DNA of 64,000 nt, from NCBI GenBank assembly GCA_964291405.2, contig OZ219926.1, positions 2,656,001 through 2,720,000 of the forward strand. Direction: 5' to 3'. The number at the start of each line of letters is the position of its first letter. Position 1 is the stretch's first letter. Positions 21,170 through 63,125 of the stretch are shown here, piece after piece. This DNA is from Thermodesulfobacteriota bacterium (GTDB lineage: Bacteria > Desulfobacterota > Binatia > Bin18). The translations under genes and the position numbers were made by a program. The notes beneath the pieces were generated by a model. It did not search any database, was not told the origin of the DNA, and saw only the letters and a list, made by a program, of their open reading frames with translations.

Positions 21170-22489
21170 ATGACCTGGCAAGCGCAGTGGGGCGATAAAC
21201 TGGTGAGTGCAGAGGCCGCGCTCGACCGGATCGTACCGACCGACCATGTTTTTGCCGCTGGTCTGACCGGGACGCCGTTTACGCTGTGTCGGGCGCTGGT
21301 CGAAAACCGGGAGCGCCTGCGGGGTCTGCGCCTCAATACGCTGATTTCCCTGTTTGACTGGAACCTGCCCGGCCTCGACGAATACTTTCACTTCGAGTCG
21401 TGGTATCTGAGCCGACGCGAACGGCCCCTGCTCCACCAGGGCAAACTCGACTATGTGCCGGTCTCCTACTTCCGGGCGGAGGCCCTTCCCTACGGGATTG
21501 ACGATCTGGATGTGTATCTGGTGACGGTGTCGCCGCCCGACCGGCACGGCAACTGTAGTTTTGGAACGACTGTAGGCATGTCGCCGCTGATGACACAGCG
21601 GGCCGCGCGGGTCGTTGCCGAGGTTGACCCGAGTTTTATCCGAACGGGCGGGACGAACACGATTCATGTGTCGGAAATCGATTGCCTGGTCGAACGCCAG
21701 AGTCCGCCGGCCACGCTGGTCACGCCTGAGACTTTTACTCAGGAAAAGCAGGATATGATCGATGCCATCTGTATGCAGATCGCCAACGATTTGCTGGAAG
21801 ATGGGGATACGATTCAGATTGGAGCGGGCGATATGACCAGCCCGCTGCTCGGCTATGTCCATGGCCGGCGTGATCTCGGGATGCAGACCGAGATCATTCC
21901 GCCGGGGGTCGTGGCGCTGGTGCGGGAAGGCCTCCTGACCGGAACAAACAAGACCGTTCATCCAGGCAAAGTGGTGGGCACCGCCTTTCACCCCCAGTTG
22001 AGCGCCGAAGAGTTGGACTTTATTGACCAGAACCCGGTCTTTGAGCTGTACGATTTCAACTATACCGACGACATTCGACTGCTGAGCAAAGACCCACGCT
22101 TTACGGCCATCAATAACGCCTTGAGCGTTGATCTCACCGGGCAGGTCGCGTCCGAATCCATCGGCTGGCAGATGTTCACCGGTACGGGCGGCCAGACGGC
22201 GTTCTCCATTGCGGCCTGTCTGGCCGGTGGAAAATCCATTATTGCAGTGCCGTCGAGTTCGTTCCTCGACGGCGCACGGATTTCCCGCATCGTACCCACC
22301 CTGGCCCCCGGAACGGTGGTCACGACCCCGCGGGCTTTTGTTGACTATCTGGTCACGGAATACGGGATCGCCACGCTACGCGGCAAAAGCCTTCGCCAAC
22401 GCGCCCAGGCCCTGACCAGTGTTGCTCATCCGGACTTTCGGGCCGAGCTGCAGGAAGAGGCGGAACGGATGTTTTACGGAAAAGAGTAA
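21170..22489 (+). CDS. Acetyl-CoA hydrolase / 4-hydroxybutyrate CoA-transferase family
   Basis: SPPD.HG..SFG, IQIGAG, GMQTE (catalytic Glu), NNALSVDLTGQ, GTGGQ, IAHPDFR-like tail. Confidence 0.88.
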   Translation: MTWQAQWGDKLVSAEAALDRIVPTDHVFAAGLTGTPFTLCRALVENRERLRGLRLNTLISLFDWNLPGLDEYFHFESWYLSRRERPLLHQGKLDYVPVSYFRAEALPYGIDDLDVYLVTVSPPDRHGNCSFGTTVGMSPLMTQRAARVVAEVDPSFIRTGGTNTIHVSEIDCLVERQSPPATLVTPETFTQEKQDMIDAICMQIANDLLEDGDTIQIGAGDMTSPLLGYVHGRRDLGMQTEIIPPGVVALVREGLLTGTNKTVHPGKVVGTAFHPQLSAEELDFIDQNPVFELYDFNYTDDIRLLSKDPRFTAINNALSVDLTGQVASESIGWQMFTGTGGQTAFSIAACLAGGKSIIAVPSSSFLDGARISRIVPTLAPGTVVTTPRAFVDYLVTEYGIATLRGKSLRQRAQALTSVAHPDFRAELQEEAERMFYGKE

Positions 22490-22534
22490 ACGCGCCCTCC
22501 AACAAATCTACAAAGCTGGGTACGTTTACTCTTT
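22481..22534 (+). repeat. 54-nt hairpin element, copy 1 (contains the stop codon of the CoA-transferase gene)
   Basis: aaagagtaaacg-cgccctccaacaaatctacaaagctgggta-cgtttactcttt. Confidence 0.85.
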
Positions 22535-22625
22535 CAGACCTGAGCCCGCAATTCCATCCCTCATTGACCCGGCGTGCGCAAGCTGTCATGAAAAGGGCTC
22601 ATATCTTCACTCTAAGGAGGACGCA

Positions 22626-23468
22626 GTGAAAATTGGTATTACGATGTTTGCAACGGATTATGCCATTCGGCCTGACATGCTGGCCAAAGAATGTGAGGAC
22701 CGGGGCTTCGAGTCCATCTGGTTTCCCGAACACACTCATATTCCGGCCAGCCGCAAGAGCCCGTGGCCGGGCGGCGGGGAGTTGCCCAAGGAATATTGGC
22801 ACACGCATGATTTGTTTGTCGCCCTGACGGCAGCCGCGGCGGTGACCAGTACGATCAAAATCGGCAGCGGCATTTGCTTGGTGATCGAGCGCGACCCGAT
22901 TACCATGGCCAACGAAGTGGCCTCCCTGGATCAACTCTCCAACGGGCGCTTGCTGTTCGGCATTGGCGGCGGCTGGAACGCCGAGGAAATGGAAAACCAC
23001 GGTACGCCATTCAATCGCCGTTGGAAGGTCTGCCGCGAGCGTATCGAAGCCATGAAAGAAATCTGGGCCAATGAAGAGGCCGAGTATCACGGTGAGTTCG
23101 TGGACTTTGATCCGATCTGGGCTTACCCCAAGCCGGTTCAGAAGCCGCATCCGCCGATTCTGATGGGAACCTTCAACGGCGGCTTGAAGCGGGTCGTCAA
23201 TTACTGCGACGGCTGGATTCCGGTTGGCTTCGACACCTCGACGCTGCCCGAGTCGATAAAAGAGCTGCACGCCCTGGCCGAGCAGGCCGGTCGCTCGCCC
23301 GAGGACGTGCCGGTGTCGGTTTTTGGCTCTTCCGATAAGGAAGAAGCCTTGGCCAGCCACCAAGAGCTGGGCGTTGAGCGGGCGGTGCTGTTTCTCCCCT
23401 CAGCCGATACCGATACCGTGCTGCCGCTCCTGGATCAGTACCAACCCTATATCGCAAAATTTGCGTAA
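22626..23468 (+). CDS. LLM class F420-dependent oxidoreductase
   Basis: GFESIWFPEHTHIP, LD.LS.GR...GIGGGWNAEE, PKPVQKPHPPI; SD AAGGAGG before GTG. Confidence 0.88.
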   Translation: MKIGITMFATDYAIRPDMLAKECEDRGFESIWFPEHTHIPASRKSPWPGGGELPKEYWHTHDLFVALTAAAAVTSTIKIGSGICLVIERDPITMANEVASLDQLSNGRLLFGIGGGWNAEEMENHGTPFNRRWKVCRERIEAMKEIWANEEAEYHGEFVDFDPIWAYPKPVQKPHPPILMGTFNGGLKRVVNYCDGWIPVGFDTSTLPESIKELHALAEQAGRSPEDVPVSVFGSSDKEEALASHQELGVERAVLFLPSADTDTVLPLLDQYQPYIAKFA

Positions 23469-23475
23469 ATCATTC

Positions 23476-61386: not shown

Positions 61387-61405
61387 TCCTTGTATGTCGG
61401 CCGCT

Positions 61406-61486
61406 GAAAGATACAGGATTCCGACTTCTGCTGGAATGGAGGGATCAGTGCGGCCTTTCCAGGCTGGGAGAGTCAGGCTAGGCTGC
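61406..61486 (+). repeat. Direct repeat B (right of the TA module)
   Basis: gaaagatacaggattccgacttctgctggaat...gtgcggcctttccaggctgggagagtcaggctaggctgc. Confidence 0.8.
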
Positions 61487-61493
61487 GGTCTGT

Positions 61494-63125
61494 ATGCAGC
61501 GTTTGTGGCCTGTTCTACTCGCCGGCGTAAGTGGTGTTGTGCTTGCCCTGGCCTTTCCGAAAGTCGATTGGAATATTCTGGCCTGGGTGGCTTTTATCCC
61601 GCTGCTCTGGATGACACAGGGGCAGACGTTACGCCGTGCTTTCAGCCTTGGCTGGATTGCCGGGATGGGGTTTTATCTCTGTACGCTGTATTGGGTCGTC
61701 GATACGATTGGCCTGTACAGCAATATCCCGCATATTATTGCCGTTGGTCCGCTGCTCCTGATGTGTGCCATTCTATCGGCATACACCGGTGTCTTTGCTG
61801 CCGGCCTGTGTGTCTGTCACAAGAGTCGGCCGCGCAACAGCGGTTGGTTGCTTCTCGTGTTTGGTCCCATGCTCTGGGTCGCCCTGGAGTGGGTCCGCTC
61901 GTTCTTTTTTATCGGGTTTCCCTGGGTCAGCCTAGGCTATTCCCAATACCACTTTGTAAACCTGATTCAGTTTGTCGAATACACTGGTGTCTACGGACTG
62001 TCGGCGCTGGTGATCTTTGGCAATGTCGCTCTCTTTATCGCCTTTTCCCGTCAGAACCGTGGGCGCCTGGTGCTGGTTCTGCTCCTGGTTATCACGGGAC
62101 TTTGGGGCTGGGGAAACTGGCGTCGTAGCCAGTTGGCGGCTCTGCCCCCGGTCCACACGCTGCACGTTGGGATCGCCCAGGGGAATATCGCCCAGGATCA
62201 AAAATGGGATCCTGATTACCAAGAGGTCACTCTCGCCCGCTATGAGCAACTCACGCGCCAGATAACAGAACAAGCAGTTGACCTGGTTATTTGGCCAGAG
62301 GCGGCAGTGCCATTTTTCTTTCAGTCTGATGTGACCTATCGTGGCCGGCTGCTGGACTTGGCCCAAGACACCAACACGCCCATCCTGTTTGGCAGTCCGG
62401 CCTTCCGAGTCGATGAGACGGAACTCACGCTATTCAACCGGGCCTATCTCCTGTCTCCGGACACGACGATTCTGGGGCATTATGACAAGATGATCCTTAC
62501 CCCCTTTGGCGAATATATCCCCTTCCAAGACAGTGTACTCTTCTTTCTGGATAAATTGGTGGAAGGGATAGGCGACTTTGCGCCAGGGACGACGCCGACC
62601 GTTTTTTCTCTTCCTCTAAAGAGTCAACCTGCCCTCCACCCCGATGATAAAGCTAGGGGCGTTGAGGCTTTTAAGACTTTTGGTGTGCTCGTCTGCTATG
62701 AGGGTGTGTTCCCTGACCTCGCGCGCCGCTTCGTTCATAATGGCGCGCAACTGCTGATCAACGTGACCAATGATGCCTGGTTCGGAGAGACTTCGGCTCC
62801 CTATCAACATCTGGCCATGGAGGCCATGCGGGCCGTCGAGAATCGAGTGCCCATGGTGCGGTCCGCGAATACCGGGATTTCAGCTATTGTGAATATCGAT
62901 GGCCAGATTCAGACCCAAACAGCACTCCTGGAGACCACCTTTATTGCCGACCAGATTACCTGGCCCCACGTGACTTCTTTCTATACCCGGTACGGCGACT
63001 GGTTTGTGACGTTGTGCGTCGTCGGGACGCTCGTTATGTTAGGTTATACAGGGATAATTGTAGTATTCGTCAAGCGAACTGGAGGAGGCGGAGATGCTGG
63101 CAGAAATCAGAGAAAAATTACATGA
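61494..63125 (+). CDS. lnt: Apolipoprotein N-acyltransferase
   Basis: GFPW..LGY, QGNI.Q..KW, WPEAA, YDK..L.PFGEY, VCYE, TNDAWFG, RAVE. Confidence 0.95.
   Translation: MQRLWPVLLAGVSGVVLALAFPKVDWNILAWVAFIPLLWMTQGQTLRRAFSLGWIAGMGFYLCTLYWVVDTIGLYSNIPHIIAVGPLLLMCAILSAYTGVFAAGLCVCHKSRPRNSGWLLLVFGPMLWVALEWVRSFFFIGFPWVSLGYSQYHFVNLIQFVEYTGVYGLSALVIFGNVALFIAFSRQNRGRLVLVLLLVITGLWGWGNWRRSQLAALPPVHTLHVGIAQGNIAQDQKWDPDYQEVTLARYEQLTRQITEQAVDLVIWPEAAVPFFFQSDVTYRGRLLDLAQDTNTPILFGSPAFRVDETELTLFNRAYLLSPDTTILGHYDKMILTPFGEYIPFQDSVLFFLDKLVEGIGDFAPGTTPTVFSLPLKSQPALHPDDKARGVEAFKTFGVLVCYEGVFPDLARRFVHNGAQLLINVTNDAWFGETSAPYQHLAMEAMRAVENRVPMVRSANTGISAIVNIDGQIQTQTALLETTFIADQITWPHVTSFYTRYGDWFVTLCVVGTLVMLGYTGIIVVFVKRTGGGGDAGRNQRKIT
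62618..62671 (+). repeat. 54-nt hairpin element, copy 5 (in frame inside lnt)
   Basis: aaagagtcaacctgccctccaccccgatgataaagctaggggcgttgaggcttt. Confidence 0.78.

Follow-up and report, generated by a model that had tools for sequence, protein, structure and literature searches.

A 64,000-nt stretch of the chromosome of a Thermodesulfobacteriota bacterium of the class Binatia (the window; G000:C3:2656001-2720000) contains five copies of a 54-nt hairpin, which are probably lineage-restricted, miniature, non-autonomous palindromic mobile DNA elements similar to REPINs (repetitive extragenic palindrome (REP) doublets forming hairpins) and Rickettsia palindromic elements (RPEs). Our confidence that the hairpin is mobile DNA of the miniature palindromic kind is high; for a mechanism that works through a single-stranded hairpin it is moderate to low. 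An earlier reading made from the letters of the window (the sequence-only reading) had proposed a dispersed, structured and mobile element, and empty sites in related genomes and real covariation in the stem now bear this out. The genome (G000; its relatives are numbered likewise) is 4.95 Mb long, with 58% G+C, in three contigs. The copies in the window are as follows:

22481..22534, + strand: copy 1, 54 nt, loop subtype A; RNA fold -20.6 kcal/mol, z -6.3
29272..29325, + strand: copy 2, 54 nt, degenerate in its 3' half; nhmmer E 4.3e-08
47971..48024, + strand: copy 3, 54 nt, subtype A, intergenic; RNA fold -20.2 kcal/mol, z -5.5
55597..55650, + strand: copy 4, 54 nt, subtype A, perfect 17-bp stem; RNA fold -26.9 kcal/mol, z -8.7
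62618..62671, + strand: copy 5, 54 nt, subtype A; an old, decayed copy

All five were seen where the sequence-only reading had placed them, with copies 1, 3, 4 and 5 aligning without gaps at 54 nt and the copy at 29272 degenerate. The compensatory arm pairs that it had quoted (AAAGAGTAAA/TTTACTCTTT, AAAGAGGAAA/TTTCCTCTTT and AAAGCAGAAA/TTTCTGCTTT) are all present among these copies, as is the C8:G47 swap in copy 5, where 12 of the 17 stem positions pair. The pattern CCTCCA-N6-14-AAAGCT matches the window five times, always on the + strand, where 0.10 matches would be expected, and none of 100 shuffles reached five. Copies 2 and 5 folded no better as RNA than their shuffles did. A scan of the window against Rfam, a comparison that had been proposed at the outset, gave no match at or above the gathering threshold.

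Three of the copies lie at stop codons and two are coding, as first described. One arm of copy 1 is the source of the TAA stop (22489 being its last base, 22487-22489) of a CoA-transferase-like gene at 21170-22489, and copy 2 likewise supplies the TAA stop (29278-29280) of a gene resembling the FAD-binding subunit of molybdo-hydroxylases, 14 nt ahead of the start region of the next gene. Copy 3 abuts a TGA stop (47968-47970), and the start of a Zn-dependent alcohol dehydrogenase gene follows about 26 nt downstream. Copy 4 is in frame within alaS (54782-57520; TIGR00344, 960.8 bits), to which it adds 18 residues (…EKQKRVLQSSAKAGHVSAF…), and copy 5 is in frame within lnt (61494-63125; TIGR00546, 340 bits), where it is read in the same frame as copy 4.

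Family size and insertion sites

A profile built from 20 copies found 144 full-length copies in G000 at a cut-off of E < 1e-3 (87 on the + and 57 on the - strand), all on the chromosome contig, and 32 further hits that were weak or partial. Just over half of the full-length copies (75 of 144) lie at 2.0-3.0 Mb, all to the same side of the point (1.92 Mb) where the cumulative GC skew is lowest. The unit is 54-55 nt long and consists of a 17-bp stem (AAAGAGKAAACGTGTCC / GGACACGTTTMCTCTTT) with a loop of about 20 nt, whose stem-proximal ends are conserved (TCCA… and …GCT). Among 145 distinct copies CCTCC is the best-conserved part of the loop; the CCTCCA and AAAGCT motifs, which had looked fixed in the window, turned out to be conserved, with only C17 and C20 invariant. 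Another 37 matches in G000 to orphan arms are mostly degenerate full copies or truncations. One of them, a perfect 22-nt palindrome, GAAGAGTAAACGTTTACTCTTT, at G000:C3:2812971-2812992, has the appearance of a copy from which the inner stem and the loop are gone.

The scan of the genome and its relatives that the sequence-only reading had suggested yielded many more copies. A covariance model (R1) made from the 145 distinct copies was applied to 28 genomes of the genus and found the element in 21 of them, with at least 123 copies in each of 17, counted up to a ceiling of 150, and lower counts in G017 (80), G013 (30), G019 (27) and G014 (2); it found no copies in G003, G008, G009, G012, G016, G020 and G024. 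In a class-wide sample, matches occurred in seven of ten genomes of the genus, and two of three genomes of the sister genus had 3-7 weak matches, while none of 106 sampled genomes from 18 other families matched. A scan of one genome per species returned at least 113 stretches, and all 80 among the matches listed came from metagenome-assembled genomes of Candidatus Binatia. No earlier description of a 54-nt hairpin family in Binatia was found in the literature searched.

Public sequencing reads place the DNA in independent samples. Twenty runs from 14 studies match part of the stretch, and two of them (X1 and X2) match most of it. The labelled runs are mostly sponge metagenomes, along with one coral metagenome, and these labels give a hint of the habitat. 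The same family recurs, at the same sites, in independent assemblies from different studies.

Orthologous sites in the relatives, where the sequence-only reading had proposed to look for empty alleles, were found with and without the element, the difference being exactly 54 nt. The alaS region was present in 27 of the 28 genus genomes, six of which carry the element (G000, G041, G002, G023, G043 and G013) and 21 of which lack exactly 54 nt. Since the genomes without it include the most divergent ones (G003, G012 and G016), the empty state (…GGCGA^CAAGCGC…) is ancestral. At the lnt site, 18 genomes have the copy and nine show its exact absence, and both alaS and lnt reading frames are open in either state. 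The site of copy 3 has an exact 54-nt empty allele in G019 (TGGTAG^GCGG) and is occupied in G004, G041 and G018, three genomes in which the site of copy 1 is occupied as well. Copy 2 is full length in G004 and G019 and has a 21-nt internal, central deletion in G041 and G018, which resembles the loss seen in the 22-nt palindrome.

To these were added 177 copies from 113 loci of the relatives, the flanks of which were looked up in G000. Here, 75 copies corresponded to an empty site (54 distinct sites), 76 to an occupied one, and 26 could not be placed. When occupied and empty alleles were aligned, the flanks abutted exactly at AAAGAG…CTCTTT, and the 54 distinct comparisons showed no target-site duplication and no fixed target word. 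Copies are thus gained and lost as exact units and are polymorphic between species.

The target preference is weak and symmetric, and is already there in the empty alleles. G stands at -5 in 21 of 34 empty alleles and 65 of 118 occupied sites, and C at +5 in 18 of 34 and 57 of 118; one position further out, the figures are 2 of 34 and 4 of 118 for A at -6, and 0 of 34 and 2 of 118 for T at +6. A one-sided GCNNN^ target was considered as a rule, but GC at exactly -5/-4 occurs at only 39 of 118 sites (21 on the left, 18 on the right, none on both), and it amounts to an enrichment. Nor do the flanks pair so as to extend the hairpin: pairing at ±4 is below chance, with 25 pairs observed and 44.8 expected.

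In run X1, one contig at a depth of about 10 (the main form has about 85-100) joins position 55597 to 55652 and lacks exactly the 54 nt of the alaS copy. The empty allele thus coexists with the occupied one in that sample, and the contig may come from a co-occurring related species. In G021 (L128, ~2072-2120), alaS has no insert at the G000 site, but a match resembling the element lies about 350 nt deeper in the gene, which suggests an independent insertion in the same gene. Elsewhere in the window, contigs of both X1 and X2 join 50323 to 51250 and leave out 926 nt around a minus-strand open reading frame (50437-50892), a presence/absence difference between strains or relatives.

Stem covariation, loop inversion and host genes

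In the 145 distinct copies, 95.5% of the stem cells form a standard pair. Two-sided changes occur at 11 of the 17 pairs and amount to 73 cells, compared to 18.5 in shuffles, and none of 500 shuffles was as high, so that the covariation noted in the window is significant in the family at large. Shifting the partner column by 1-3 positions destroyed the signal. The most frequent alternation is between T7:A48 (94 copies) and G7:C48 (37 copies).

Because covariation among dispersed copies could reflect subfamilies, orthologous copies were examined. Between G000 and its relatives there were 14 two-sided stem changes at orthologous sites, eight exchanging one standard pair for another and five turning a mismatch into a pair, along with 84 one-sided changes, among about 940 pair comparisons. 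If the two sides changed independently, about 3-4 two-sided changes would be expected by our own estimate from the per-side rate. The alaS copy of G013 is a case in point: pairs 9-46 and 10-45 have gone from A-T to C-G and pair 13-42 from T-A to G-C, and despite a diverged peptide (EEQTRALPTSSQADPGSAF versus EKQKRVLQSSAKAGHVSAF in G000) the copy keeps a fold of -26.1 kcal/mol. The arms are therefore kept complementary in place. This could be due to selection on the folded DNA or RNA, or to correction of one arm by the other through template switching.

The loop also changes in place. At nine of the 41 orthologous sites that hold a copy in G000 and in a relative alike, the loop is reverse-complemented (the other 32 have the same orientation), which corresponds to 11 of 59 distinct pairs, none of them ambiguous. 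The flanks of the flipped sites are colinear at 85-95% identity, and the loops become near-identical after reverse complementation. Loops otherwise vary a great deal from copy to copy, so the flipped ones are existing copies in reversed orientation, and not fresh insertions. At one flipped site, an inner-stem variant had moved to the other arm along with the loop; the exchange must therefore have taken place within the outer stem. T·T and C·C mismatches next to the stem are conserved and strand-asymmetric. Mixed loop orientation is beyond what contigs from read runs can show, and the raw-read run gave only 28 reads. We found no report of in-place loop inversion in a bacterial repeat family in the literature searched.

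Surviving copies are mostly intergenic or at the 3' ends of genes, and some are accommodated in frame through two stop-free frames. The 144 copies comprise 70 intergenic ones, 43 over a gene 3' end, 10 over a 5' end and 21 inside genes. At 23 of the 43 3' ends, the stop codon of the host gene is the element's own TAA at position 7, which the palindrome presents on both strands. Fourteen copies count as well embedded, with 100 nt or more between them and both ends of the gene, and the other 130 are not embedded in coding sequence. The proteins that contain the embedded copies are AlaRS, Lnt, MnmG, MnmE, Mfd, a MiaB-like radical-SAM enzyme (two copies), an AddB-like nuclease, a histidine kinase, a TolC-like protein, a HEAT-repeat protein, an FAD-dependent oxidoreductase and two further proteins, one of 293 residues that matches nothing in Pfam and one, unannotated, of 1,904 residues.

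The 16 sense copies that lie fully inside called genes use the three frames 10, 6 and 0 times, and the unused frame is the one carrying the TAA. Seven embedded copies share one frame and a common peptide, …K(S/R)KRVLQS.KKAGHV.SF…. The gene for the MiaB-like radical-SAM methylthiotransferase, just beyond the window (G000:C3:2721296-2722810), contains two in-frame copies 201 nt apart, both of which encode the KRxLQS.KKAGHV.SF peptide. In AlaRS, the 18 residues form a clean insert between conserved blocks when compared to the Aquifex aeolicus structure sequence (1riq). No other copy of alaS was found in G000, so the insert is presumably translated and tolerated. The single RNA run was sparse and covered only conserved stretches of alaS, from other organisms.

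Relative to transcription, 77 copies are sense, 41 antisense (p = 0.001) and 26 undefined. The orientation is thus non-random, as had been anticipated; the statement that all copies are sense, however, holds for the five in the window and fails in the genome as a whole. It reflects the sample, because the window copies all belong to loop subtype A (…AAAGCT), in which the sense bias is 22 to 4. In subtype B (…GATGCT) the ratio is 32 to 23, which is not significant. Copies at gene 3' ends are sense in 27 cases and antisense in 16, and those inside genes in 16 and five. Replication strand was rejected as the cause: in the putative right replichore, the origin being placed by GC skew only, the orientation goes with that of the gene (45 to 18 for + genes and 10 to 15 for - genes), and the left replichore is unbiased. 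A stronger sense bias in young copies is not claimed, as the profile score is confounded with subtype, the seed copies being subtype A.

The same bias is an argument for the second possibility left by the sequence-only reading, that the element is primarily an mRNA-level signal (a stabiliser, terminator or translational regulator) acting through its hairpin and the anti-Shine-Dalgarno-like CCUCC motif, and that it was spread and kept for that function. In addition to the overall bias and the stronger one in the window subtype, the intact copies fold strongly as RNA, 43 of the 144 lie over gene 3' ends and many just upstream of starts, and the CCTCC is the most conserved part of the loop. However, about one third of the copies that can be oriented are antisense, subtype B has no significant bias, and the loop flips in place at nine of 41 sites. 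The stem is A+T-rich at its base and is not followed by a run of T (T occupies +1 to +4 in 38, 37, 14 and 18 of 118 cases), which does not fit an intrinsic terminator. Furthermore, the insertions are polymorphic between close species and occur within coding sequence as well, copies 2 and 5 persist without the fold, and no Rfam family matches in the window. We therefore regard a primary role in mRNA as unlikely.

Possible mechanism and alternative explanations

Several points count against reading the family as mobile elements. Mobility was deduced from comparisons of sites, and no transposition event was seen directly. All genomes are metagenome assemblies, in which the consensus may hide mixed orientations, and the positions relative to genes depend on our own crude gene caller (4,637 genes, 88% coding). 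Mobility alone does not explain the sense bias (77 to 41, and 22 to 4 in subtype A). No mobilising enzyme was found among the Y1/HUH, IS110, TnpB and multi-copy insertion sequence (IS) genes checked; serine and tyrosine recombinases were not searched for. Y1/HUH genes (PF01797) occur in 13 of the 28 genus genomes with a distribution that does not track the element, IS110-type genes in one, and TnpB-type genes in eight, G000 not among them. In G000, no gene family reaches three near-identical copies, and there is neither a multi-copy IS nor a longer element between two arms; the one RAYT-like gene (RAYT, REP-associated Y1 tyrosine transposase) recognised in the genus is embedded in tandem copies of a different REP. 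The fixed tetra- or pentanucleotide target that a mechanism of the IS200/IS605 type predicts was not found either.

If the elements are mobile, as we propose, the folded hairpin or cruciform might be recognised by an enzyme acting in trans, by a "peel and paste" reaction on single-stranded DNA in the manner of IS200/IS605 or of RAYTs. Recognition of a folded single strand would fit, because the junctions are seamless and the T·T and C·C mismatches strand-asymmetric; the weak, symmetric target would fit a dimeric enzyme on duplex DNA equally. Recombination, or a switch of template, within the inverted arms could account for both in-place inversion and arm-to-arm correction, and the moderate sense bias could reflect selection or insertion bias, not a designed mRNA signal.

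A bolder version, which we put forward tentatively and consider doubtful, is a hairpin transposon that moves by a mechanism outside the HUH/Y1, DDE, IS110 and TnpB-associated systems. The folded 54-mer, with its conserved pyrimidine-pyrimidine internal mismatches, would be recognised by an enzyme, perhaps one of the host's own, and joined bluntly to sites that are weakly palindromic (G at -5 and C at +5), and the recurrent loop inversion would serve as a frame-preserving switch that creates alternative 18-residue inserts, for example in AlaRS.

A REPIN-type element moved by the genome's own RAYT appears improbable. In its favour are the two inverted arms, the single long hairpin and the compensatory changes, which are features of REPINs according to the portion of the published description available to us (PMC3116915). 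Insertion is seamless, and G000 carries a truncated Y1_Tnp fragment. The ortholog in G001 has the HVH and YIENNP motifs, which we take to be those of RAYTs, and is presumably RAYT-like. However, this gene is embedded in a tandem, GC-rich REP of about 43 nt (hairpin GCGGCC-ATCTT-GGCCGC), which is a family of its own. G000 has at least 60 copies of this REP, counted with up to four mismatches against a 23-nt core; six are next to the truncated Y1 gene, and the window contains none. The arrays are:

L152 (G001:C1:3102907-3106137), 1290-3095: GC-rich REP array around and overlapping the RAYT-like gene
G000:C3, ~978,000-983,000: six GC-rich REP copies around the truncated Y1 gene

None of the 144 hairpin copies is found within ~19 kb of the Y1 gene; there is a weak, sub-threshold hit at a distance of about 15 kb. 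Y1_Tnp had no match in nine element-rich genomes (G002, G004, G006, G010, G011, G015, G022, G041 and G043), and is present in four genomes without the element (G008, G016, G020 and G024) as well as in G014 with its mere two copies. The arms contain neither a REP palindrome nor a GTAG/CGTC tag, and copies occur inside genes. With its own REP family and no co-occurrence of Y1 genes with the element, the RAYT was rejected as the mobiliser, and the statement that the hairpin is not a GTAG-type REP stands. The HUH/RAYT or other transposase flanked by the motif that the sequence-only reading had proposed to look for was not encountered in G000.

IS110- and TnpB-type genes were rejected as mobilisers because their distribution does not follow that of the element. 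(G006 has 22 TnpB-type (PF07282) matches, where most other genomes of the genus have none or one, which suggests a recent IS expansion in G006 only.) A likeness to integron attC sites, with their AAC…GTT triplets, was rejected by inference, as an attC would be cut inside the hairpin and the junctions lie at its base.

A classical MITE (miniature inverted-repeat transposable element), that is, an internal-deletion derivative of an IS moved by the DDE transposase of that IS, would account for the 17-bp terminal inverted repeats, the small size and the high copy number. However, none of the 54 distinct occupied/empty comparisons shows a target-site duplication, and G000 has neither a multi-copy transposase gene nor a longer element bounded by the arms. 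Nor would one expect the stem to covary, or changes to be compensated in situ, in duplex ends bound by a protein, and this origin is highly improbable. A separate element of about 245 bp at 59029-59273, in a gene-poor stretch of the window, has 20-bp terminal inverted repeats (GGTAGTGTCTCAGTTTGGAAT … ATTCAAACTGAGACACTACC); some of its segments have matches of 74-97% identity at several loci of the relatives, no tRNA is predicted there, and it looks like another MITE family.

The duplicates that appeared in the multi-copy inventory of G000 are the ~32-kb overlap of the two ends of the contig. The stretches G000:C3 2,044-29,343 and 4,863,330-4,895,488 share ~27-32 kb of genes in unchanged order, most likely because a circular chromosome was assembled with overlapping ends.

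Finally, that the repeats are not mobile, but remnants of duplication or gene conversion or artefacts of long-read assembly at palindromes, which can confuse polishing in metagenome assemblies such as these, is very unlikely and the least credible explanation of all in view of the empty sites: exact 54-nt presence or absence is seen at unrelated loci, the essential genes are open in both states, and family and sites recur in independent assemblies from different studies.

Comparison with known systems

In-frame palindromic repeats in essential genes are mostly known from Rickettsia, where the mechanism is obscure, and the Binatia family is an independent case, with unusually clean data, from a sponge-associated lineage that is uncultured and whose genome (4.9 Mb) is free-standing. 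Dozens of exact empty/occupied pairs over about 28 species, a measurable target preference, in-situ compensation and inversion allow one to ask how hairpins move and how their arms are kept complementary. For annotation the element is a hazard, since it creates stop codons and 18-residue inserts, and it is a possible strain-typing marker for sponge-associated symbionts.

The hosts of RPEs are obligate intracellular Alphaproteobacteria. The elements themselves are palindromic, about 150 bp long, and inserted in frame in unrelated housekeeping genes with a recurring peptide, and have no associated transposase known, as far as the consulted part of the source goes (PMC10969869). The parallel that the sequence-only reading had drawn to them is apt, in that the hairpin family is likewise found in frame in essential genes, namely alaS and lnt (by exactly 18 codons), mnmG, mnmE and mfd, with seven copies sharing a peptide. 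In contrast to RPEs, it is a near-perfect single hairpin of 54 nt in a Binatia host, and 130 of its 144 copies are not in coding sequence. The distinction from RPEs is drawn on size, host and the negative Rfam scan, rather than on alignment to RPE sequences.

REPINs consist of inverted conserved arms with a spacer that form a long hairpin, in which compensatory changes are common, and they persist vertically and are excised as units, to go by those sections of the description that were at hand (PMC3116915). The hairpin family shares the two inverted arms, the compensatory change and the vertical persistence. However, it has no cognate RAYT (the Y1_Tnp genes of 13 of the 28 genomes do not track it), and its arms (AAAGAGKAAACGTGTCC) have neither an internal hairpin nor a GTAG/CGTC tag. 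It is also not extragenic, with 14 copies in genes and 53 over gene ends, and its loop inverts in place.

Elements of the IS200/IS605 group are inserted and excised seamlessly, with no target-site duplication, in a reaction that depends on folded hairpins; their target is a fixed tetra- or pentanucleotide, 3' of which they insert, and their left and right subterminal hairpins differ. The lack of a target-site duplication is shared by the hairpin family, but here a single hairpin extends to the very ends, the target is weak and symmetric, and Y1 and TnpB genes do not co-occur with it. The inverted ends recall a classical MITE, from which the family differs in having no duplication and no parent IS in G000.

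Two further systems come from organelles. Recurrent inversion of a short loop between short inverted repeats, which is then found reverse-complemented between relatives, is a feature described from plastid genomes. Those cases are unique, non-coding organelle hairpins, whereas the present ones belong to a multi-copy mobile family on a bacterial chromosome and involve nine of 41 sites. In the mitochondrial genes of Nematomorpha, long inverted repeats of up to 284 bp occur in frame in essential genes, according to the portion of that study available to us (PMC6649704); on that account they are similar in position, but belong to a different type of genome and size range.

By the defining features of either group, the hairpin family is neither a REPIN/REP-RAYT system nor an RPE. 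It is distinguished by a combination of very small size, no recognisable transposase among those searched, seamless insertion at a weakly palindromic target, frequent inversion of the loop and in-situ correction of the arms.

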